A stretch of DNA of 63,169 nt, counting the filler, from an uncultured bacterium (GTDB lineage: Bacteria > CAZDME01 > JAYEMH01), in NCBI GenBank assembly GCA_964506785.1. It is 8 parts of 8 records of this genome, joined end to end, with 100 filler letters (N's around TTAATTAATTAA, not from the genome) between each part and the next. Parts side by side here need not be neighbours in the genome. Positions count along the whole stretch, not along the records: positions 48,676 to 55,951 come from CAZDME010000062.1; 7 more parts are not named here. One strand, written 5' to 3'. The notes beneath the pieces were generated by a model that did no database searches, had not been told where the DNA came from, and worked only from the letters and a program-made list of their open reading frames with translations. The position numbers were made by a program, and so were the translations under genes. Shown one piece after another: positions 8,064 to 56,051 of this stretch (its first letter is position 1; each line of letters opens with the position of its first letter).

Positions 8064-8718
8064 GAAAAAACCGAATAGTTTTCTAAAAATAGGTGTATGT
8101 TTCTTTATTATATCTGGACTTATCGGCCAGTTTTCTTGCGCTGCCCGGGCCAATCCCATAAAAAATATCCATCAGGCCATTCAGCAGAAGGTGTATTTTA
8201 GCGAAGTAAACGGAAAGGTTTTTACTCACACCCATATCCCCAAGACAAAAGCCCTTTTTGGCGAGAAAACCCTTACTCCCCTTGTCCCCAAAACCCCGAG
8301 TCCGGCGAATAGCCGGGCTCGGGGAACCCTCCTGTTTCGGAATGCGCCAAAGCCTGATTTTGACCGGGAGGTTTTCAAGAGAGATATAAAGAAAATAGAG
8401 GGGTATATAGAAAAGGGTATTGGAAAAAAGGTTGTAAAAAGAGGGAAAAAGGCAGTAGGAGAGATTATAAAAACAGTAAAAGGGGTAGGTAAAGAGATTA
8501 AATTAAGCCGCGAAGGAAAGAAAACTGAACAATCATTGCTGGTTAAAGTTCGAGGGGCGATAAAGGAAGCAAGCCATGTTTTCCGTGCCGTGCCAAAAGA
8601 GAAGGCTGCGACAGGCAAAGTTTCCCCAAATAGAAATTTATTTGCCCCGGACCGCCAGAGACTGGGAACAAACCAGCCGACGTATCCTTTGGGGTTAAAG
8701 AAAGAGAAGCGGTTTTAA
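8047..8718 (+). CDS. Lys-rich secreted hypothetical protein
   Basis: Signal peptide MEKQTKKK...FSCAARA; very basic mature region. Confidence 0.6.
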   Translation: MEKQTKKKPNSFLKIGVCFFIISGLIGQFSCAARANPIKNIHQAIQQKVYFSEVNGKVFTHTHIPKTKALFGEKTLTPLVPKTPSPANSRARGTLLFRNAPKPDFDREVFKRDIKKIEGYIEKGIGKKVVKRGKKAVGEIIKTVKGVGKEIKLSREGKKTEQSLLVKVRGAIKEASHVFRAVPKEKAATGKVSPNRNLFAPDRQRLGTNQPTYPLGLKKEKRF

Positions 8719-8819: not shown

Positions 8820-8919
8820 NNNNNNNNNNNNNNNNNNNNNNNNNNNNNNNNNNNNNNNNNNNNTTAATTAATTAANNNNNNNNNNNNNNNNNNNNNNNNN
8901 NNNNNNNNNNNNNNNNNNN
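8820..8919. other. Artificial contig linker 1
   Basis: 100-nt N-run with central TTAATTAATTAA (stops in all six frames). Confidence 0.99.
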
Positions 8920-17220: not shown

Positions 17221-17320
17221 NNNNNNNNNNNNNNNNNNNNNNNNNNNNNNNNNNNNNNNNNNNNTTAATTAATTAANNNNNNNNNNNNNNNNNNNNNNNN
17301 NNNNNNNNNNNNNNNNNNNN
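17221..17320. other. Artificial contig linker 2
   Basis: N-run with TTAATTAATTAA. Confidence 0.99.
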
Positions 17321-25340: not shown

Positions 25341-25440
25341 NNNNNNNNNNNNNNNNNNNNNNNNNNNNNNNNNNNNNNNNNNNNTTAATTAATTAANNNN
25401 NNNNNNNNNNNNNNNNNNNNNNNNNNNNNNNNNNNNNNNN
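25341..25440. other. Artificial contig linker 3
   Basis: N-run with TTAATTAATTAA. Confidence 0.99.
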
Positions 25441-33345: not shown

Positions 33346-33445
33346 NNNNNNNNNNNNNNNNNNNNNNNNNNNNNNNNNNNNNNNNNNNNTTAATTAATTA
33401 ANNNNNNNNNNNNNNNNNNNNNNNNNNNNNNNNNNNNNNNNNNNN
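33346..33445. other. Artificial contig linker 4
   Basis: N-run with TTAATTAATTAA. Confidence 0.99.
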
Positions 33446-41042: not shown

Positions 41043-41142
41043 NNNNNNNNNNNNNNNNNNNNNNNNNNNNNNNNNNNNNNNNNNNNTTAATTAATTAANN
41101 NNNNNNNNNNNNNNNNNNNNNNNNNNNNNNNNNNNNNNNNNN
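41043..41142. other. Artificial contig linker 5
   Basis: N-run with TTAATTAATTAA. Confidence 0.99.
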
Positions 41143-47342: not shown

Positions 47343-48575
47343 CTATCTTGGCACCACCGGTTTTTTTATTAAAAACAAATTATAAATAAACAAAAGGGAA
47401 GAGTTCGGTGTAATTATATAAAGGACCTGAGGTAAAGTCCTATGGAAAAAGCAGATTAAAATAATCTGCGAAACTGAAAAGAAAATTAAAGGTCGTATAA
47501 AATTAAAGCGGTGAATGGAGAGATTATAAAGAAGCAAAGTGTATGTTAAAGAAAAAAAAGTCATGGCAATTCCGAAGAGCCTGGCCAGAGGGAAACATTC
47601 CACATACGCCTTACCTGATAAAATCCTGATAATTACGGAGGGAAATAAAAAACAGATTAATGCTCCGATGGCACAGGGGACCCCCACAATCATCAAGGTT
47701 TTTTTCAACATAGAAATTGTATCTTTCCCCCGGGCATGAAGGTAAGAAACTTTAGTGAACATTACCATAATAATCGCCGCAGGCCAGAATAGCATTATTT
47801 TCCCCACCAGCTGGGCAATAGAGTAGTAACCCGCCTCTACCGGAGAAAAAAAGCGCTTAACCAATAAAATATCAAAATTGGTAAGTGCCGTAAAACAAAG
47901 GAAAGTTATGGAAACCGGGATAAAATATTTGTAAACTTTGCTAAAATTTAATTCTTTATTTTCTGCTATTTCTTTATCGGGAATAAAGTCGCCGGGATTG
48001 ACTGGCGGGCCGCTTTCGGATAAATCCGGGGGGCTTTCTAATGCGCTTCTCAACATAAAAAGTGATAAGATAAGGGGAATAAATGTAGCAAGGCCAACGG
48101 CTGTCAAAACACCGCCTACCTCTAATCCGGCGGTTATCAAAAAAACACCGACCAAAAGTTTTAATGCCCCCGAGAGGATTATATTTATACTTAAAAAGCC
48201 AAATCTCTGGAATCCTTGAAGCGCCCCGTAGCTGAAGGGCAGAACAAGGGAAAAAAACATTATAGCTCCAGTTGCTATAACAAAATGACTTGAGCCGATT
48301 TGAAAAAAGGCAGCGATTATTCGGCTGCCAAAAGTAAAGGCAAAGAACAGAAGCAGGCCAAATAACGATATCCTTTTCCCTAACTTGAACAGTAGATGCT
48401 TTATCTTCGCTAAATGCCCTTGGGCATAAAAGCTGGAAACAAACTTAGTAGCCACAGTTTGAATCGGCCCGAAAGAGGCAGAAACCAACATCATCATTGC
48501 AAATAACGTCGTGACAACTCCGAAATTTGAAAGGCTAAGATTTCTTGCCATAAACAGGGAAAAAAGTATACTGAA
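47343..48575 (-). CDS. Wzx-type polysaccharide flippase, 5'-truncated
   Basis: Many TM helices; GALQGFQRF, DILLVK, AGYYS. Confidence 0.88.
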   Translation of the reverse strand, partial: FSILFSLFMARNLSLSNFGVVTTLFAMMMLVSASFGPIQTVATKFVSSFYAQGHLAKIKHLLFKLGKRISLFGLLLFFAFTFGSRIIAAFFQIGSSHFVIATGAIMFFSLVLPFSYGALQGFQRFGFLSINIILSGALKLLVGVFLITAGLEVGGVLTAVGLATFIPLILSLFMLRSALESPPDLSESGPPVNPGDFIPDKEIAENKELNFSKVYKYFIPVSITFLCFTALTNFDILLVKRFFSPVEAGYYSIAQLVGKIMLFWPAAIIMVMFTKVSYLHARGKDTISMLKKTLMIVGVPCAIGALICFLFPSVIIRILSGKAYVECFPLARLFGIAMTFFSLTYTLLLYNLSIHRFNFIRPLIFFSVSQIILICFFHRTLPQVLYIITPNSSLLFIYNLFLIKKPVVPR

Positions 48576-48675
48576 NNNNNNNNNNNNNNNNNNNNNNNNN
48601 NNNNNNNNNNNNNNNNNNNTTAATTAATTAANNNNNNNNNNNNNNNNNNNNNNNNNNNNNNNNNNNNNNNNNNNN
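48576..48675. other. Artificial contig linker 6
   Basis: N-run with TTAATTAATTAA. Confidence 0.99.
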
Positions 48676-48732
48676 ATAACTTTTTCTAATTTTTTCTGAG
48701 CATTCCTAAAGCTAAAAGCGCCTTTTTTGGGT

Positions 48733-48816
48733 TTACTTACCGCGGGTAGGGCCCCGCCTTTTATTAGCCCTTTTGGAACGCCAGCGTAATTTACCTTTTC
48801 TTTTAGCTTTCGACAT
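48733..48816 (-). CDS. 27-aa basic peptide resembling ribosomal protein bL37 (not in ORF track)
   Basis: MSKAKRKGKLRWRSKRANKRRGPTRGK*; AGAGG RBS. Confidence 0.6.
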   Translation of the reverse strand: MSKAKRKGKLRWRSKRANKRRGPTRGK

Positions 48817-48885
48817 AAATATGCCTCTTCTAAATGAAGCCATAAGGTAACAATCTTGCCCCGCTTACCTTATACCTGTCACCTA

Positions 48886-49032
48886 TTATCTATTTTCTGC
48901 TTCTCCCCAAATAACAAACCCCTGGGTTTCCCTTTGTTTTTTTTCTTCTGCTTTTTTCGATGGCGAACAACTAAAATTAAAAGTTATTAAAAAAACTGCA
49001 AGAACCAAAAAAATTGAAAAATTTTTATCCAT
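48886..49032 (-). CDS. 48-aa lipoprotein (not in ORF track)
   Basis: MDKNFSIFLVLAVFLITFNFSC-SPSKKAEEKKQRETQGFVIWGEAENR*; AAGGA RBS; lipobox-like FSC. Confidence 0.55.
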   Translation of the reverse strand: MDKNFSIFLVLAVFLITFNFSCSPSKKAEEKKQRETQGFVIWGEAENR

Positions 49033-49065
49033 TTTGATTTCCTTTTTACCAAACCGTTAAATAGC

Positions 49066-49097
49066 AACAAAGCAGGAGCTTCCGCTCCTGCCTTGTT
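49066..49097. terminator. Intrinsic terminator hairpin after the poly-Lys ORF
   Basis: Minus strand AACAAGGCAGGAGC-GGAA-GCTCCTGCTTTGTT. Confidence 0.75.
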
Positions 49098-49127
49098 TTA
49101 AAAAAATTGAATCCAAAGAACTAAAAT

Positions 49128-49175
49128 TTATTTTTTCTTTTTTTTCTTCTTTGCTTTCTTCTTTTTCTTCGCCAT
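49128..49175 (-). CDS. 15-aa poly-lysine micropeptide MAKKKKKAKKKKKKK (not in ORF track)
   Basis: AAAGGAGG SD 7 nt before ATG; mixed AAG/AAA codons; has its own promoter and terminator. Confidence 0.7.
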   Translation of the reverse strand: MAKKKKKAKKKKKKK

Positions 49176-49209
49176 TTTATCCCCTCCTTTATTTAAATCT
49201 CCAAATGTC

Positions 49210-49239
49210 ACTATACAGTAAAACAAACCTCTTTGTCAA
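49210..49239 (-). promoter_or_regulatory. sigma70 promoter of the poly-Lys ORF
   Basis: TTGACA(49239-49234)-N18-TATAGT(49215-49210). Confidence 0.7.
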
Positions 49240-49319
49240 GAAGAAAATGAGAAATTTGTATTTTTTTTACCCGGCTGGCATTTTAGTAAATTTTCCCGTC
49301 GATAATTTTTTCGAAGCGA

Positions 49320-50366
49320 TTATAAAAAATTTTTGAATTTTTTTCTAACCAAAGATTTTTTCAGGTTTTTCGAAACAAAAATCTTAAATCCTTTGTCTTT
49401 TTCCGTAATAACAATGCCTTCCAAATCTTTTGTCTTTTTAATCAAGCTAATCCCTTTTTTTTCTCCTAAAATAAAAACTGCCGTCGCCAAAGCATCAGCT
49501 TCCATAGCATCAGGGGCGATAATTGTCACGCTGGCAACTTTACTTTCCGACAAACCCGTCCGGGGGTCTATCAGGTGATGAAACCGCTTCTTGTTTAAAA
49601 TTTTAAACCGCTCATAATCCCCGGAGGTAGCTACGCCCTGATTAGCGCATTTGAATTCAAAAATTAAATCTGAGCCCCTGGGATTCCTCACCCCTATCCT
49701 CCAATTTTTTTTATTCTTCCCTTTACCCGAGGCGAAAAGGTCGCCGCCTGCTTCCACTAAAGAATTTTCTATGCCATTTTCTTTAAGAATCTTCACCGCC
49801 CGGTCAATGGCATAGCCTTTGGCTATTGCCCCCAAATCAATCTTTATTCCTTTCTTCTTAAGTCTTATCCGGTTCCGGCGGCTGTCTATTTCGATGTTTT
49901 TGTAGTTTACCAGCGACAGCTTCTTTTGGATTTCAGCCTCACTTGGTATTTCATCTTTCTTTAATTTTCCCTTCCACAATTCTACCAACGGCCCGACAGA
50001 AACATCAAAGGCACCCTGGCTCATATCGGAAATCTTTCTGCTTTCTTCGAGCAAAAAGATAACTTCCGGAGTGGTTTTAAAAAACTTTAATTCTTCGGAC
50101 TGATTCAGTTTATATATCTCGCCGGACTTATCTTGACTTGAAAACATCTTTTCTATCCGCTGGAGCTCTTTAAAAGCACAATCAGCAGCCCGGCTGGCTT
50201 TTTTCATGTCCCTATCGATTACAGTAATGTTCACTACCGTGCCCATTAAAACCCGGCTTTTTTTAAAAATTTCGGGCTGCTGCCTTCCCCTCGTAAAAAA
50301 CAAAGTTAGAAGAGAAAAAAAACCTATTATGATAATTATTTTAGTTAAAAATTTTTTGGTTTCCAT
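49320..50366 (-). CDS. apbE: FAD:protein FMN transferase
   Basis: LMGT, FDVSVGPL, DLGAIAKGYAID, ATSGDYER, HHLIDPRTG, ADALATA. Confidence 0.95.
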   Translation of the reverse strand: METKKFLTKIIIIIGFFSLLTLFFTRGRQQPEIFKKSRVLMGTVVNITVIDRDMKKASRAADCAFKELQRIEKMFSSQDKSGEIYKLNQSEELKFFKTTPEVIFLLEESRKISDMSQGAFDVSVGPLVELWKGKLKKDEIPSEAEIQKKLSLVNYKNIEIDSRRNRIRLKKKGIKIDLGAIAKGYAIDRAVKILKENGIENSLVEAGGDLFASGKGKNKKNWRIGVRNPRGSDLIFEFKCANQGVATSGDYERFKILNKKRFHHLIDPRTGLSESKVASVTIIAPDAMEADALATAVFILGEKKGISLIKKTKDLEGIVITEKDKGFKIFVSKNLKKSLVRKKFKNFL

Positions 50367-50368
50367 AT

Positions 50369-51736
50369 TTAGATAAGGCTAAAAACCCAAATAGCGATGC
50401 GGAAATAAATAAGAAGAGTGGTAATGTCAATGATGGTGCTGATTAAGGGGCCGGAACTAATAGCCGGATCCACTCCTAATTTTTTAAAAAGGAGCGGCAA
50501 AACAGCGCCAATGGTCGTGGCCACCGATATGACGGCAATCATCGTTAAAGCAACACTTAAACCGAGTAAGGTATCCCCTTGAAAAATTAAAGCTCTCACG
50601 GCCGCTAATATTCCGATGACAGACCCTATCAACAAGCCAATCAATAGTTCCTTCCGAATAATCCGCCAGATATCTCCAAAGTTAAGCTCTCCGGTAGCCA
50701 ATCCTCTGACTACCACCGTAGCCGCCTGCGTCCCGGCGCCACCGCCTGTATTCATTAAAAGGGGGATAAAAAAAACCAGAGCCATAGTCGTGCTGAGCAC
50801 GGCTGTATTTTTTTCCATGACAAAACCAGAAAACAAACTGGCAACAACTAAAACTAAAAGCCAGCTGATTCGATGCCGCGCCATAGAAACTATATTGGCT
50901 TGGAAATAATTTTCTACCGGTTTAGTTAAGGCGCCAAAATGATACATGTCTTCGGTAGATTCGTCTTCCATAACGTCAAGCACATCATCAACGGTAATAA
51001 TCCCTTTCATCTTTTTCTGCTTATCCACGACAGGAAGAGCTAAAAAATCATAACGGGATATTTTGCGGGCAACATGCTCCTGATCCATATTTACCGGCAC
51101 AGAGATGATATGGCGATGCATTATCCTGGAAATAGGTAAAGCCGGGTCAGCCACCACTAATTCCTTTAAAGAAAAAACGCCAATAAGCCTATCCTGTTTG
51201 TCTAAAACGTAAAGGTAATAAATGGTTTCTAAGTCTTTGGCTAAGGCGCGGATTTTCTCCAGGGTTTCTCCCGCGGTATTATCTGGAGAGAAATGGGCAA
51301 ATTCTGTGGTCATCCGCCCGGCGGCAGTATTACTGTCATAACCGATTAATTCCTGGACGTCACGGGCCTCTTCATGCTCCATGATGCTTAAGAACTCTTT
51401 TACCATTCCTGCAGGCAAAACAGAAAATAAGTCAACCCGCTCATCCGAAGAAATTTTATTAAGAAGTTTAGCGCTTTCCGCGCGAGGCAAAGATTTAAGA
51501 AGAGCGGTTTGAATTAAACGGGGTAAATTTTCAAAAATATCAGCGGCAAAATCTTTATCCCAATTATTGAACAGAAATTGACGTTCTTTTGCCTTTAAAT
51601 GCTTAAGCACCTCAGCAATTTCTACCGGCTCGAATTCCTCCCAGATATCCTTAAGCTCTTCTAACTTCTTCTCGTCAATCAATTCTTTTATCTCCGGTAA
51701 AATTAAATTAACCCGAGAAATTTGTTTGTTTTTCAT
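50369..51736 (-). CDS. mgtE: Magnesium transporter MgtE
   Basis: AAGRMTTE, CBS pair, GIITVDDV, GTQA, DPAISSGPLISTIID. Confidence 0.96.
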   Translation of the reverse strand: MKNKQISRVNLILPEIKELIDEKKLEELKDIWEEFEPVEIAEVLKHLKAKERQFLFNNWDKDFAADIFENLPRLIQTALLKSLPRAESAKLLNKISSDERVDLFSVLPAGMVKEFLSIMEHEEARDVQELIGYDSNTAAGRMTTEFAHFSPDNTAGETLEKIRALAKDLETIYYLYVLDKQDRLIGVFSLKELVVADPALPISRIMHRHIISVPVNMDQEHVARKISRYDFLALPVVDKQKKMKGIITVDDVLDVMEDESTEDMYHFGALTKPVENYFQANIVSMARHRISWLLVLVVASLFSGFVMEKNTAVLSTTMALVFFIPLLMNTGGGAGTQAATVVVRGLATGELNFGDIWRIIRKELLIGLLIGSVIGILAAVRALIFQGDTLLGLSVALTMIAVISVATTIGAVLPLLFKKLGVDPAISSGPLISTIIDITTLLIYFRIAIWVFSLI

Positions 51737-51884
51737 CTCTAATTCTCCTCGCCTGTCGACAGAAAGGCTATTTTAATTTCTATTATTCGATTTTGAATGT
51801 ATGCGGGCTCAACCCCGCGCGCCATAAGTTATTATATCACAAAACGTTTAAGCGAAGACAAAAAATCTCAAGGATTATAACTTC

Positions 51885-51913
51885 TTGACACCTGCCTTAT
51901 ATGCCGATATAAT
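51885..51913 (+). promoter_or_regulatory. Consensus sigma70 promoter of pilin cassette B
   Basis: TTGACA-N17-TATAAT. Confidence 0.8.
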
Positions 51914-51934
51914 TTTCTTAGGGGAAGCGGTAAA

Positions 51935-52384
51935 ATGGGTAAGTATTTTTTTAAATCCTTATTTAAACCTAACTCCGGCGTCACCTTAATTGAAAGTGTT
52001 GTCGCAATTTTTCTCACCTTGACCGCCTTTGCCGCCTTGTTTCAGATGTTTTCCTTTGGCTACCTCCGGGTAAAGGGGGTAAAAAACCGCCTCAGCGCTA
52101 TCCATCTTTGCCAGGAGAAAATGGAAAGTCTCCTTGACCTACCCTATACATCCATTGCTCTTTATTCCCAAACCCAGGAAGAAGTAACAATAGATTACGG
52201 GGCCGATTCTTCTTCAGATGAAGATGACCTGAAAGGCACCCGCACTGTCCAGACACTGGAGGATTGGATAGTTGATGAAGAGTTGGTTGGCAAGAAAGTT
52301 ATTATCACCGTTGCCTGGAAACGGAACAATAAAGATTTAAGCGAGACCCTGATTACCGCCGTTTATGACGGCCATAACCAATAG
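51935..52384 (+). CDS. PilV-like minor pilin (cassette B gene 1)
   Basis: NSG|VTLIESVV; paralog of 6912..7370. Confidence 0.82.
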   Translation: MGKYFFKSLFKPNSGVTLIESVVAIFLTLTAFAALFQMFSFGYLRVKGVKNRLSAIHLCQEKMESLLDLPYTSIALYSQTQEEVTIDYGADSSSDEDDLKGTRTVQTLEDWIVDEELVGKKVIITVAWKRNNKDLSETLITAVYDGHNQ

Positions 52385-52390
52385 GTTAAA

Positions 52391-52912
52391 ATGAAAAGAA
52401 ACGAAACCCTGTTAAAGAAAATACCTCAAGGAATGGCAGGTTTCACCCTGGTAGAAGTAGTCATTGCTATCATTGTTGTCACCCTGGTTATCGCCGGCCT
52501 GATAGCAAGTTATCTGGTTATTCAGCGCAATTGGCAGGGCGGCTCAAAGCAAATAATTGTCCAGGGGCAGGGCCGGCTGGCTTTAAATCATATCTGCCGG
52601 CACATTCGGGAAGCAAGCAATCTCGGAGTATCAAACCTGGGCAGAACCCTGGTCATAATTCGGCTGGATGGAGGTAGCCTTGCTTATAAATATGATGAAC
52701 AGAGTCATACCTTGAATTACTACCCTGATTGGTCAGATCAGACTTCCAAGGAAGTACTGGTCAATAATCTGTATAAACAGCCGGGTAACCCAATTTTCCT
52801 AAGAAGCGGCTCCCGGAAAGTATATATTCACTTTAGAGTGATAGACGTAAACCAAATAGACGGCTATCAAGGGATAGACTTGTCCTCTTCTGCTTACAGC
52901 CGGAATATGTGA
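52391..52912 (+). CDS. PilW-like minor pilin (cassette B gene 2)
   Basis: MAG|FTLVEVV; shares DGYQGIDLSSxAYxRN C-terminus with 6386..6904. Confidence 0.82.
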   Translation: MKRNETLLKKIPQGMAGFTLVEVVIAIIVVTLVIAGLIASYLVIQRNWQGGSKQIIVQGQGRLALNHICRHIREASNLGVSNLGRTLVIIRLDGGSLAYKYDEQSHTLNYYPDWSDQTSKEVLVNNLYKQPGNPIFLRSGSRKVYIHFRVIDVNQIDGYQGIDLSSSAYSRNM

Positions 52913-52930
52913 TAAAAGGAATCAATAAAG

Positions 52931-53155
52931 ATGCCTGCCTCAGGAATAGAAGCAAAAAAAAGGCAAAAAGGGATGGTAGTAATGTTGGTTATCGTTTTCA
53001 TGTTCCTTTGTTTCCTGGCCGGAGGGACATATTTAGTGGTAGTCACCAATGAATGCCGGCTGATGAAGAAAGAAATAGATTCTATAAAGGCCTTTTACCT
53101 CTCTCAAGCGGGAATAGAATACGGCCTCTGGCAGATAAAAAAGCAAAACCCTTAA
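52931..53155 (+). CDS. PilX-like minor pilin, N-terminal helix only (60 aa mature; cassette B gene 3)
   Basis: QKG|MVVML lacking Glu+5; AFYLSQAGIEYG; stop after KQNP. Confidence 0.8.
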   Translation: MPASGIEAKKRQKGMVVMLVIVFMFLCFLAGGTYLVVVTNECRLMKKEIDSIKAFYLSQAGIEYGLWQIKKQNP

Positions 53156-53162
53156 ACTAAAT

Positions 53163-53192
53163 TTGCTTTTAGCCCTTCCTTTATGGTATAAT
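53163..53192 (+). promoter_or_regulatory. Internal sigma70-type promoter
   Basis: TTGCTT-N18-TATAAT; TTTATGGTATAATCATTATGGAGA is identical to cassette A. Confidence 0.7.
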
Positions 53193-53237
53193 CATTATGG
53201 AGAAAAAGGGTAGAGAAACAAAGGGGAGGCAAATAAA

Positions 53238-54605
53238 ATGAGGACAAAAAGGGGTAGTAAAAGGGTAATAAAAAGTGTATTATTTTTAAGCTTAGCCAGT
53301 GTAGTATGTATCTTCTTTGTCAATTTGGCTGAAGCCGCTGAAATCCAGCATTATACGATACCTCCCTTAGCAAAAGGCACCGCCCCGATTGAGGTAGAAA
53401 TAAAGGTAAAGACCGATTGGCTTGATGCTCAAGGAGAGCCCTGGACAGGCCCTGAAGCTGGAGATAGACATAAGTGCTTTGAAGTGAAAAGTAAAGGCCA
53501 AGATATTTCAGGGAAAACAGCAAAGCACACTAAAGTTGACACGGAACTGGCTACATCTTTCGATAAAGTTATCGTGCCGGATGACTTTCCGCCTAATCCT
53601 GATCCCCCGCCAGGTCCTGCACCTGCTCCTAATGTCTGGTTAATGCCCCAGCTTGTTAGCGCGAACTACATGCAGCCTGAAATCTTGGCTGTTTCAGCTA
53701 CTGCTTTATCAAATATGCGTTGGTGGGGTGGAGACCCTTTTAGTGCTAATATAGACCCTTTAATCGACAGAATTTACTTTGAGTCTGAAGTAGACGGAAA
53801 TTACGAAAGAATATGGGAAACTCCCTTGGGTTGGACAAGACCTTCTGATTTTGATCAAAAGAAAAACGAGACAATACAATATTTAAAAGAAAACGGTTAT
53901 GATTATCTGCCTCAATCTACATTAGGAACTATTGCCGAAGATGCGGTTGATTGGTCTCAAAGTTATTTTTCGGAGGATCATCCGCTATTAGAAGAGGAAC
54001 GAAGTCTCGGTGTTATGCCGGCACGTTATTATAGATTGCCCGATGGAACTCAAATCATATTTAATTTCAGGACAGACTATAGTGCTGCGGGACAACTCTA
54101 CATCCCCACCTCAACCGACCATGTTGAAGACGTAGCCCAGGGGGCCAATCTTGATAAATATGCGGGGGTAACAAGTCTAGACGCAGGCGATATGAAAAAT
54201 TCCCCGCAACAGACGACACCTCAAGAAACATTACCAGCTACCCGAGAAGAGGAACAGACAGCTATGATAATGCAAGCCCTGCAAGCAGCAGCAAATTATC
54301 AACCGAGACAAAGCGTACAAGAAACATTTTCTGAAAAAAGTTCCAGTGGCACCACTTATTATAGCCCTAGTAGTTCTTCTTCTGCTTCCAGCAATCCCAG
54401 CGCAACAACTCCTGTAGTAAATTCTTTAGCAATCGGCCTATCCAGTCTTTTCCAAAATGGCACGATTCAAAAAAGTTCCAGTGGCACTTATTATAGCCCT
54501 AGTAGTTCTTCTAGCTTTACTTCTTATGGTAATGCTACCTCTTCTGGCAGCACTGGTACTAGAACGAACCTCTATGATAGAACGAACCCTTATAGATTTT
54601 GGTAA
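53238..54605 (+). CDS. 455-aa signal-peptide protein with PilX-like globular region and Ser-rich tail (cassette B gene 4)
   Basis: GGAGG RBS; signal peptide ending AEA; FEVKSKG...TKVDTEL; Pro-rich linker; duplicated KSSSGT(T)YYSPSSSSS. Confidence 0.78.
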   Translation: MRTKRGSKRVIKSVLFLSLASVVCIFFVNLAEAAEIQHYTIPPLAKGTAPIEVEIKVKTDWLDAQGEPWTGPEAGDRHKCFEVKSKGQDISGKTAKHTKVDTELATSFDKVIVPDDFPPNPDPPPGPAPAPNVWLMPQLVSANYMQPEILAVSATALSNMRWWGGDPFSANIDPLIDRIYFESEVDGNYERIWETPLGWTRPSDFDQKKNETIQYLKENGYDYLPQSTLGTIAEDAVDWSQSYFSEDHPLLEEERSLGVMPARYYRLPDGTQIIFNFRTDYSAAGQLYIPTSTDHVEDVAQGANLDKYAGVTSLDAGDMKNSPQQTTPQETLPATREEEQTAMIMQALQAAANYQPRQSVQETFSEKSSSGTTYYSPSSSSSASSNPSATTPVVNSLAIGLSSLFQNGTIQKSSSGTYYSPSSSSSFTSYGNATSSGSTGTRTNLYDRTNPYRFW

Positions 54606-54629
54606 TCTTGAAGAATAAGGTGCATTAAG

Positions 54630-54815
54630 ATGTTAAAAAAAATAATAACCGTGCTTATTTTAGCCTTACTTTTCTGGGGATTATCTTCAGAAATTTCCCG
54701 AATTTGGGCTAAAGTTGTATATATACGCGGGGATACTGAAATCAATATTACCCGCTGGAAAGAAATCGTTCAATGGAACGAAGAAACTGACGAAGAAAAA
54801 CTATCCTCTAACTAA
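54630..54815 (+). CDS. 61-aa secreted micro-protein with EINITRWKE motif (cassette B gene 5)
   Basis: Signal peptide MLKKII...IWA; paralog of 4493..4654. Confidence 0.75.
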   Translation: MLKKIITVLILALLFWGLSSEISRIWAKVVYIRGDTEINITRWKEIVQWNEETDEEKLSSN

Positions 54816-54821
54816 ATCAAT

Positions 54822-55577
54822 ATGGCTAAATTAAAACAGAAAAGAGGAAGCAACTTGAAAAATGCTTCCTTATTTTTTTTGATTATTATAACCTTCCCTT
54901 TTATCTTTCTGGCTAAAGGCGAAACAGCTACTTTTAAAAGAAAACCCACCAGTCCAGAATACTCTACTATCACCCTATGCATACCAAATGAGAAAGGCAA
55001 TATCGTTAACTTCTGGGTAGAAGACTTAGTCAAAGATGATTCTGGAAAATCAAAGATTATCGGAATAATTGTTTGTGATAAAAACGGCCTACCCCAATAT
55101 TATATGGATGAAAACCAAAAGGTAAAAGCCCGCTACCTCTGGCAATCGGATGCTCAAGGCAATTTACAGAATCTAAAAATAGTGGAGGTAGAAACGGCCG
55201 CTGAAGGCAAAGAAATCGTTACCAAAAGCTGGAAATATGATTCTGAGGGGAAACTGGAATATCGGACTGATGCTGAAGGCAAAATAATAAAACCTTTAAA
55301 AGAAGAAGTTTCTTTCGATCCTCCACGCGAAATGGAAATCTTAGATAACACCAAAATTATTGCCCAAACAATTCCCGAGAGACATAAAAAGATAGAAAAC
55401 AAGAAAGAAAAAACTTCTTTAAAAAATAAGGATTCTTTATTGCAAGCAAAAAAACGCTATCCCTTCCCCAAGTTTATGCTTGGTCAAACCGGGTTCATTA
55501 TCTATGTAGCGGTTTTTGCTCTTTTTGCCGGAGCGGTGGTGGGTTTTATAGTTTATACTTTCCATAGCAGTAAATAG
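54822..55577 (+). CDS. Exported, C-terminally anchored protein (cassette B gene 6)
   Basis: Paralog of 3689..4477. Confidence 0.8.
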   Translation: MAKLKQKRGSNLKNASLFFLIIITFPFIFLAKGETATFKRKPTSPEYSTITLCIPNEKGNIVNFWVEDLVKDDSGKSKIIGIIVCDKNGLPQYYMDENQKVKARYLWQSDAQGNLQNLKIVEVETAAEGKEIVTKSWKYDSEGKLEYRTDAEGKIIKPLKEEVSFDPPREMEILDNTKIIAQTIPERHKKIENKKEKTSLKNKDSLLQAKKRYPFPKFMLGQTGFIIYVAVFALFAGAVVGFIVYTFHSSK

Positions 55578-55661
55578 TCTTTATATATACAGAAATCGGA
55601 AAAATTTGACTTTGTTGCAATAATATGTTATATAATATATGAACAGTTTATAATAGGTAAA

Positions 55662-55797
55662 ATTTCGATAAAGGCAATCTGCCATGATTTCCGCTACAAA
55701 AGTCAGCGGATAAGTATGGCAGAGCGCAAAACCACGGGTCCGAGTAAAGGATAGCCGAGTTGCCGAAACAGGAAGCAATTCGGCTTTTTGTTTTTTT
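55662..55797 (+). ncRNA. Atypical c-di-GMP-I riboswitch with extended P2 and terminator
   Basis: TCGATAAAGGCAA-TCTGCCAT...ATGGCAGA-GCGCAAAACC...TAGCCGAGTTGCCGAA; terminator AGCCGAGTTGC/GCAATTCGGCT followed by a T tract. Confidence 0.8.
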
Positions 55798-55798
55798 C

Positions 55799-55847
55799 AA
55801 AGGACAGCCGGGTTGCCGGAAGCTAAGGTAATCCGGTTGATTTTTAT
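55799..55847 (+). promoter_or_regulatory. Second c-di-GMP-I 3' half embedded in its own terminator-like hairpin
   Basis: GGACAGCCGGGTTGCCG...GGTAATCCGGTT-GATTTTT. Confidence 0.65.
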
Positions 55848-55858
55848 AGGAAAAACTA

Positions 55859-55951
55859 ATGCAAATCTGGCAAAATAAAAAATCAATATTTAGAATAATT
55901 GCTTCAGCAGCAATATTTCTCTTTATTCTATCCCAGACAGAAATTGCCTGG
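55859..55951 (+). CDS. Secreted protein, 3'-truncated (signal peptide only)
   Basis: MQIWQNKKSIFRIIASAAIFLFILSQTEIAW runs into the contig end; AGGA RBS. Confidence 0.65.
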
Positions 55952-56051
55952 NNNNNNNNNNNNNNNNNNNNNNNNNNNNNNNNNNNNNNNNNNNNTTAAT
56001 TAATTAANNNNNNNNNNNNNNNNNNNNNNNNNNNNNNNNNNNNNNNNNNNN
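55952..56051. other. Artificial contig linker 7
   Basis: N-run with TTAATTAATTAA. Confidence 0.99.

Follow-up and report, generated by a model that had tools for sequence, protein, structure and literature searches.

A conserved oligolysine micro-gene in an uncultured bacterial lineage and a patchily distributed class of similar short reading frames

Findings

The 63,169-nt stretch of DNA analyzed here (the window) joins eight parts of the genome of an uncultured bacterium (GenBank assembly GCA_964506785.1; GTDB lineage CAZDME01, JAYEMH01) and carries, on its minus strand at 49128..49175, a micro-gene whose open reading frame (ORF), MAKKKKKAKKKKKKK, comprises 15 codons plus TAA and would specify a peptide of methionine, two alanines and 12 lysines. 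The ORF is equipped with a promoter, a Shine-Dalgarno (SD) sequence and a hairpin, is kept in a second genus of the same family, and has counterparts of the same pattern in other phyla. We give roughly even credence to the view that it is a gene in its own right, strongly expressed and encoding a lysine-only polycation, which would bind nucleic acids and ribosomes in a mobile, electrostatic manner.

The source of the window is a metagenome-assembled genome (MAG), denoted G000, of 1.38 Mb in 112 contigs, with 42% GC and an estimated completeness of 91%. The micro-gene unit lies on contig C62, which corresponds to window positions 48676-55951 (7.3 kb), about 400 nt from the contig end. C62 shares its first 55 nt with the end of contig C33, and the unbroken context of the region was taken from L138, a metagenome contig of 107 kb that belongs to the same species. 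The parts of the window are separated by joints of 44 N, 12 bases and 44 N (8820-8919, 17221-17320, 25341-25440, 33346-33445, 41043-41142, 48576-48675 and 55952-56051), and no feature is readable across any of these. In GTDB the phylum consists of three species only, G000, G001 and G002. The last of these belongs to another genus of the same family as G000, with flanking ApbE DNA that is about 69% identical, and a strain variant of the G000 species, L140, was available from another metagenome.

The micro-gene and its expression signals

In the direction of transcription, the unit opens with a promoter whose -35 hexamer, TTGACA (49239-49234, minus strand), is held in the block CATTTTCTTCTTGACAA (49233..49249, minus strand), identical at 17/17 positions between G000 and G002, and whose -10 hexamer, TATAGT (49210..49215, minus strand), follows after an 18-nt spacer, so that 11 of 12 hexamer positions agree with the consensus. 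This TTGACA-N18-TATAGT promoter is the best of six promoter-like sites in 48400-49700, a region for which shuffled sequences give 2.6 +/- 1.6. The SD sequence AAAGGAGGGG (49181..49190, minus strand), with its GGAGG core 7 nt from the ATG, is part of the block AAGGAGGGGATAAAATGGCGAAGAAAAAGAA, which is the same in G002 at all 31 positions; its 7-nt match to the anti-SD is equalled or exceeded by just 53 of the 1035 long ORFs in G000. The ORF itself runs from an ATG at 49175-49173 to a TAA at 49130-49128 and reads ATG, GCG, (AAR)5, GCA, (AAR)7, TAA, all G residues of the lysine codons occupying the third position and no run of A exceeding 8 nt. It ranks first among the 53 SD-preceded short ORFs of G000 in which lysine and arginine make up at least 50% of the residues. 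A U-rich spacer (49098..49127, minus strand), poorly conserved in sequence relative to G002, connects the stop codon to the extended stem of a hairpin with a GNRA loop (49066..49097, minus strand); the 8-bp core, GCAGGAGC-GGAA-GCTCCTGC (49091-49072), can be extended to a stem of 14 bp with a folding energy of about -25 kcal/mol, and the weak U-tract TTTGTTGCTATTT (49059..49071, minus strand) is located directly 3' of it.

An earlier, sequence-only reading of the window had described the promoter, SD, codon series and GNRA-capped hairpin of this unit, all of which are present, on the minus strand, and had pointed to the third-position G residues in the lysine run, which proves true of every one. 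It had also anticipated that gene callers would miss the ORF, and the 48 nt do fall short of the minimum gene length that gene callers usually apply.

Two longer versions of the coding sequence were considered and rejected. A 32-aa extension starting at a TTG begins inside the promoter, is not preceded by an SD sequence and adds residues that are unconserved in G002; the extended product has no match at cut-off in NCBIfam or Pfam. A frameshifted extension through the hairpin fails as well, since the shifted frame ends almost immediately in G002. A REP-type (repetitive extragenic palindromic) repeat was likewise dismissed as an explanation of the hairpin, which is present in a single copy in the G000 genome.

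Conservation within the lineage

The orthologous unit in G002 has a TTGACA-N18-TATATT promoter, again with 11/12 consensus positions, the same SD sequence as G000 and an ORF of 16 codons that encodes MAKKKKAKKAAKKKKK. Both arms of the hairpin are identical between the two genera, and the loop, GTAA in G002, still belongs to the GNRA type. In the three-way alignment of G000, G002 and L140, fully identical islands stand out from a poorly conserved spacer: CATTTTCTTCTTGACAA, AAGGAGGGGATAAAATGGCGAAGAAAAAGAA, the end of the ORF together with its stop codon (21/21) and the two hairpin arms. The L140 ORF has 14 codons, exactly one lysine codon being missing with the frame kept, and thus the alleles of 14, 15 and 16 codons (L140, G000 and G002, respectively) differ by whole codons only. 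This in-frame variation is noteworthy because slippage by one base would be the usual error in such a tract.

Variation within the species is sparse: four DNA runs containing the G000 species yielded 8 substitutions and 1 insertion over 1725 nt, too few for a test of constraint. None of the nine variants falls in the SD sequence, the micro-ORF or the hairpin; a single population variant, 49224 C>T, is located in the promoter spacer, and the hexamers are variant-free. The third species of the phylum, G001 (88% complete), gave no match to the micro-ORF, the gene for a 27-aa peptide that accompanies it downstream, ApbE or S-adenosylmethionine decarboxylase (AdoMetDC), and this says nothing about the unit because the whole region is absent from G001. 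A scan of metagenomes with the SD-start block returned seven loci, two from the G000 species and five from longer genes of ordinary kinds whose products start with MAKKK (GrpE-like, GyrA-like and a Lys/Ala-rich protein). Two of the metagenome contigs, L134 and L136, have a longer Lys/Ala/Arg-rich protein that opens with the SD-start block of the micro-ORF, and its small C-terminal domain resembles, by eye, the GTP_EFTU_D2-type ORF beside a 26-aa gene in the Omnitrophota locus L144. Separately, 164-nt contigs from two DNA runs (X1 record 2 and X2 record 6), which align to window positions 49069-49091 and 49162-49189, combine the hairpin and the SD-start block in altered relative orientation, a hint that the samples contain a further unit or organism related to this one.

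A wider class of oligolysine micro-ORFs

A strict pattern, ATG-GCN-(AAR)4-N0-27-(AAR)4-TAA, was scanned over one genome per species and gave at least 119 loci with 121 matches, 118 of them in-frame "MAKKKK...KKKK" ORFs of 10-19 codons; the remaining three are the starts of ordinary proteins. A 5-nt SD core is found at -18..-4 of 95 of the 118 ORFs, compared with 88 of 908 (9.7%) other ATGs in the same loci, and a strict hairpin with a T-rich tail follows within 110 nt in 49 of 115 class ORFs, strong GC hairpins being present in many more. Among the loci listed, a hand count of the 80 that carry titles assigned about 20 to Methylomirabilota/Rokubacteria, about 20 to archaea (mostly DPANN), about 16 to Patescibacteria and 8 to Planctomycetes, Verrucomicrobia or Omnitrophota, with Acidobacteriota, Gemmatimonadales, Elusimicrobiota, Goldbacteria and Bdellovibrionota included in the rest. 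Two loci, L052 (copies 129 nt apart) and L063, each carry the micro-ORF as a tandem duplicate. The sequence-only reading had proposed a search of related genomes for SD-preceded MAKKKK micro-ORFs and had named a lack of conservation, coupled with the lack of a transcript or ribosome footprint, as the result that would tell against it; the search produced the G002 ortholog, the L140 allele and this multi-phylum set, and the unit is retained in G002 and L140 alike.

With a GC content of 42% in G000 and an A/T-rich surrounding region, the micro-ORF might be regarded as a functionless chance product of an intergenic spacer. The pattern, however, has one match in the window and none in 100 dinucleotide shuffles, is absent from all 398 other bacterial genomes scanned (274 families, outside the family of G000; the reversed-pattern control also gave 0), and belongs to a unit that is conserved in the sister genus and in strains. 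We consider the probability of this explanation negligible, and conservation has already effectively refuted it.

For the gene neighborhoods of the class, 146 flanking ORFs were scanned; the associations are lineage-specific, and related genomes do not amount to independent observations. Downstream of the class ORF in Patescibacteria, SecA is encoded in 11 loci and HPF in three; upstream neighbors in the class are RsfS in two loci and a class II aminoacyl-tRNA synthetase (aaRS) in six, and in nine Methylomirabilota loci rpmB lies next to the class ORF on the opposite strand. These neighbors in other phyla hint at a link to translation. In 13 Patescibacteria loci (L019, L024, L028, L037, L044, L050, L055, L060, L067, L068, L077, L082 and L093) the micro-ORF occupies a common slot after a class II aaRS gene or murB and directly before hpf (3) or secA (10), and in the Saccharibacteria locus L078 the polylysine ORF is followed directly by an AdoMet_dc gene.

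Peptide or RNA as the product

The composition of the class offers a view of what may be under selection. The interiors of the 118 ORFs comprise 373 residues, namely 163 Lys, 154 Ala, 22 Thr, 13 Gly, 10 Val, 7 Ser, 2 Glu and 2 Asp; not one is Arg, and Pro and large hydrophobic residues are missing too. The flanks of class loci with 65-69% GC contain 4799 Arg codons and 724 Lys codons. Because arginine is never used in spite of this excess of Arg codons in high-GC flanks, the class is, as judged from its composition, selected for lysine and for more than positive charge alone. The four Ala codons are used almost equally in the interiors (44, 41, 35 and 34), and in an Elusimicrobiota single-cell genome two tandem copies encode the same peptide with five synonymous and no non-synonymous differences.

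Codon choice shows a further regularity. The fraction of AAA among lysine codons, class versus flanks, is 0.45/0.79 at low GC, 0.43/0.67 in the following GC class and 0.11/0.41 at high GC, so that AAG is enriched over flanking ORFs in every GC class, and the A-runs of the class do not exceed 9 nt. Iterated AAA codons are reported to make the ribosome slide (PMC4363877). The AAG bias and short A-runs fit avoidance of such sliding, that is, selection for accurate translation; an A-tract RNA element or a sliding device would call for the opposite. Taken together, the sequence data show selection on the reading frame, the composition of the peptide and the choice of codons, and they point to the peptide more than to the RNA as its object.

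Alternatively, the locus may act through its RNA. In this view the product would be a small RNA with an incidental ORF, and its purine-rich (AAR)n tract, also readable as an A-R-N repeat, would be the binding site for a protein or for another RNA. The distal face of Hfq recognizes the A-R-N motif, and (AAR)n conforms to it. In addition, synonymous positions are very highly conserved between G000 and G002, including those in the ends of the two ORFs, which are identical throughout, and the predicted transcript is short (171 nt), carries a stable hairpin at its 3' end and has a fold that none of 200 shuffles matches (z = -4.65). Against these observations stand the whole-codon indels, the in-frame condition of 118 of the 121 listed matches, the SD core present in 95 of those 118 as opposed to 9.7% of control ATGs, the purely synonymous divergence between paralogs and across phyla, and the occurrence of the same ORFs in archaea. 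We regard an RNA product as very unlikely.

Hairpin, read-through and the downstream genes

The core hairpin begins 36 nt after the stop codon in G000 and 38 nt after it in G002. The approximately 40 nt that separate the hairpin from the following start codon, at 49032, contain no promoter-like site; the G000 hairpin has a weak U-tract, and its G002 counterpart was not scored as a terminator. The combination of a weak U-tract and the lack of a promoter before the next gene implies that the downstream genes are probably transcribed through the hairpin, which probably serves as a leaky terminator.

The genes in question are arranged in the same order in G000/L138 and G002: ApbE, micro-ORF, lipoprotein-like gene, 27-aa gene, 88-aa gene and AdoMetDC. 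The lipoprotein-like gene (48886..49032, minus strand), 48 aa in length with a 45-aa G002 ortholog in the same position (L002 2344-2481), is probably co-transcribed with the micro-gene via read-through; in both genera its product features a signal peptide followed by a cysteine and a C-terminal FVIWGE motif. The next gene (48733..48816, minus strand) encodes the polybasic 27-aa peptide MSKAKRKGKLRWRSKRANKRRGPTRGK, 78% identical in G002. It is followed in both genera by a gene for an 88-aa protein without family assignment (L138 633-899, minus strand; L002 2794-3060) and by AdoMetDC (L138 106-531, minus strand; L002 3142-3597; PF02675, E = 2.7e-38). Pfam and NCBIfam contain no family that matches the 27-aa, 48-aa or 88-aa products at cut-off.

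The 27-aa gene has at least 169 confirmed relatives of 26-27 aa, nearly all in Omnitrophota MAGs, with the consensus MGKRKRRGKLNWRSKKANKGRKPCLG, and therefore represents a strongly conserved and apparently unannotated family. The sequence-only reading had called this neighbor bL37-like, a resemblance that finds no backing: a phmmer search of the PDB with the peptide gave nothing at E <= 10, a profile of 20 family members gave only two non-ribosomal chance matches (E = 2.6), and the Pfam and NCBIfam searches were negative, as stated above. A polylysine ORF is present within 1.5 kb on either side of the 27-aa homolog in one of 80 loci, that of G002 itself, and the linkage of the two genes is a peculiarity of the present lineage. 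Two Omnitrophota loci, L144 and L207, were scanned for neighbors, and in both a CsgG-like gene lies just upstream of the 26-27-aa gene.

The arrangement of a short ORF, a hairpin and further genes could also be that of a cis-regulatory leader, in which the run of lysine codons senses Lys-tRNA or translation capacity and thereby adjusts how often transcription ends at the hairpin and how strongly the lipoprotein-like and 27-aa genes beyond it are expressed; such a Lys-sensing leader had been among the functions suggested in the sequence-only reading. About 15 codons ruled by a single codon and followed by a hairpin are the classical layout of a leader peptide, 12 of the 15 codons in the G000 ORF specify lysine, the stop-to-hairpin distance is kept, and a promoter is absent between the hairpin and the next gene. 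The amino-acid attenuator leader peptides hisL, pheL and thrL share the length of 14-16 codons dominated by one amino acid, the terminator-like hairpin and the further genes, but the micro-gene differs from them in having neither a mutually exclusive antiterminator nor lysine genes downstream nor a match to an Rfam leader above its gathering score. Minimum free energy (MFE) folds of both G000 and G002 leave the hairpin intact whether the RNA is free, masked at mid-ORF or masked at the stop, and a ribosome that terminates 36 or 38 nt upstream does not reach the stem. Termination efficiency is reported to rise with the stop-to-hairpin distance (PMC4824070). None of the lipoprotein-like, 27-aa, 88-aa and AdoMetDC genes is related to lysine, and elsewhere the class ORFs precede unrelated or opposite-strand genes and occur as tandem duplicates. 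Rfam yielded four sub-threshold matches only, the best being L20_leader on the opposite strand (30.1 bits, versus a gathering score of 58.7). On this evidence the suggestion of a Lys-sensing leader is not borne out, and we hold a regulatory leader of this kind to be quite unlikely.

Comparison with known systems

Tiny polybasic ribosomal proteins, namely bS22 (PDB 7jil_5, 8fmw_V), bL37, eL41 and bTHX, invite comparison. They resemble the micro-peptide in having no more than about 35 residues, more than half of them basic, and in being missed by gene callers; high expression and presumed nucleic-acid binding would be further likenesses, both of which we infer for the micro-peptide. The two can be told apart by composition and length, as these ribosomal proteins mix Arg with Lys, have recognizable motifs and are fixed in length, whereas the micro-peptide combines Lys with small residues, is devoid of Arg and varies in length by whole codons. 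Outside the window, G000 encodes an unannotated bS22 homolog of its own, a 31-aa ORF, MPCGKKKKRKKIAKHKRKKRLRRDRHKKKKR, with a strong SD sequence (contig C22, minus strand, start at position 8449 of the reverse complement), which matches PDB entries 7jil_5 (E = 3.4e-6), 9i5v_10 (E = 1.6e-5) and 8fmw_V (E = 2e-5).

It is accordingly a fair question whether the micro-peptide is a stoichiometric ribosomal micro-protein seated in a fixed rRNA pocket, in the manner of bS22, bL37, eL41 or bTHX. Tiny and polybasic, with top-tier expression signals, it adjoins another tiny basic gene in G000, its counterparts in other phyla neighbor translation genes (SecA, HPF, RsfS, class II aaRS, rpmB), and the bS22 gene in the same genome illustrates that such genes are routinely missed. 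A fixed pocket is nonetheless hard to reconcile with a length that varies both across the class (10-19 residues) and within this lineage (14-16), with the absence of any conserved motif besides the Lys runs, and with 0 Arg in 373 interior residues even in GC-rich genomes, unlike the Arg/Lys-mixed bS22 of G000. The distribution of the class is patchy, the neighbor associations are lineage-specific and come from related genomes, which are not independent, and the 27-aa neighbor is not demonstrably ribosomal. A ribosomal micro-protein is thus, in our estimation, unlikely.

Bacterial histone-H1-like proteins rich in lysine and alanine, exemplified by chlamydial Hc1/Hc2, Pseudomonas AlgP and Bordetella BpH1, show a different kind of likeness: they too are dominated by Lys and Ala, poor in Arg and of low complexity, much like the class interiors with their 163 Lys and 154 Ala among 373 residues. 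They are about 100-350 residues long and built of repeat units, while the micro-peptide, with 15 residues, has the size of one or two such repeats; unlike them, it comes with a complete expression unit of its own, in which the SD-ATG and TAA boundaries are conserved in G002. In its Lys/Ala-only, zero-Arg composition, the predicted peptide resembles H1-type tails more closely than it does the Arg/Lys-mixed ribosomal micro-proteins.

Poly(A)-track translational attenuators (PMC4363877, PMC4552401) share the iterated AAA/AAG lysine codons, but the short A-runs and AAG enrichment of the micro-ORF class are the opposite of what a sliding or stalling device would require. Within those parts of the literature that were accessible, no description of oligolysine micro-genes was found, and the closest published kinds are the tiny polybasic ribosomal proteins and the long H1-like Lys/Ala proteins, from which the micro-peptide is set apart by its size, its lysine-only rule and its variable length.

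A proposed role for the peptide

Under the interpretation that we favor, a lysine-only polycation with electrostatic targets, the promoter, of the sigma-70 type, would start a short mRNA onto which the near-perfect SD sequence would load ribosomes. The initiator methionine would probably be removed from the 15-residue product, leaving AK5AK7 with a net charge of about +12. The GNRA-capped hairpin 36 nt past the stop codon would end most transcripts and, being leaky, would give much short micro-gene mRNA and little read-through into the lipoprotein-like and 27-aa genes. The active product would be the peptide and not the RNA: a disordered, lysine-only polycation that could bind polyanions such as rRNA and ribosomes, other RNA, DNA or polyphosphate, its binding being electrostatic and dynamic, like that of a histone-H1 tail or of a gene-encoded polyamine.

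Several considerations weigh against this interpretation and should be set out together. Transcription, translation, read-through and the binding role are all read from the DNA, and the binding target in particular is conjecture. A composition limited to lysine could also be explained by a mechanism that reads Lys codons. The nucleotide identity between the genera (31/31 and 21/21) exceeds what the peptide would need, and an additional constraint at the RNA level may possibly operate in this lineage. The unit is carried by just two genera of a three-species phylum, and the strict pattern is patchy elsewhere, with 0/120 other Omnitrophota and 6/60 other Methylomirabilota. The class may be convergent and not homologous; repeated origin is possible, and common descent across phyla is not demonstrable because the sequences are of low complexity. 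The presence of AdoMetDC four genes downstream speaks against the peptide simply substituting for polyamines. Finally, the description of the locus in the sequence-only reading as a self-contained transcription unit holds in so far as the micro-gene is real and conserved, but needs qualification, as the downstream genes have no promoter of their own and the unit is not strictly self-contained.

A broader and decidedly more tentative proposal can be formulated from the same observations. Many uncultivated bacteria and archaea might have evolved, possibly independently, an oligolysine "peptide polyamine" encoded in 10-19 codons, selected for lysine and not for positive charge as such and biased towards AAG for the sake of the frame, that would supply ribosomes, RNA or the nucleoid with an abundant, mobile counter-ion; in the lineage studied here it might head a polycation module together with the 27-aa peptide and AdoMetDC.

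Implications

The practical lesson for annotation is that wherever a strong promoter, SD sequence and hairpin occur together in a seemingly "empty" spacer, the DNA deserves a search for ORFs shorter than 20 codons. Should the peptide be produced, its gene would be among the shortest conserved protein-coding genes known, and it would represent a class that is missed, by construction, by standard annotation, tryptic proteomics and protein databases. Members of this class are found in candidate phyla of bacteria and in DPANN archaea, and they maintain the lysine-only rule even in GC-rich genomes. The class thereby raises a testable question, whether cells encode an oligolysine polycation of their own and, if they do, whether its site of action is the ribosome, the nucleoid or some other part of the cell.

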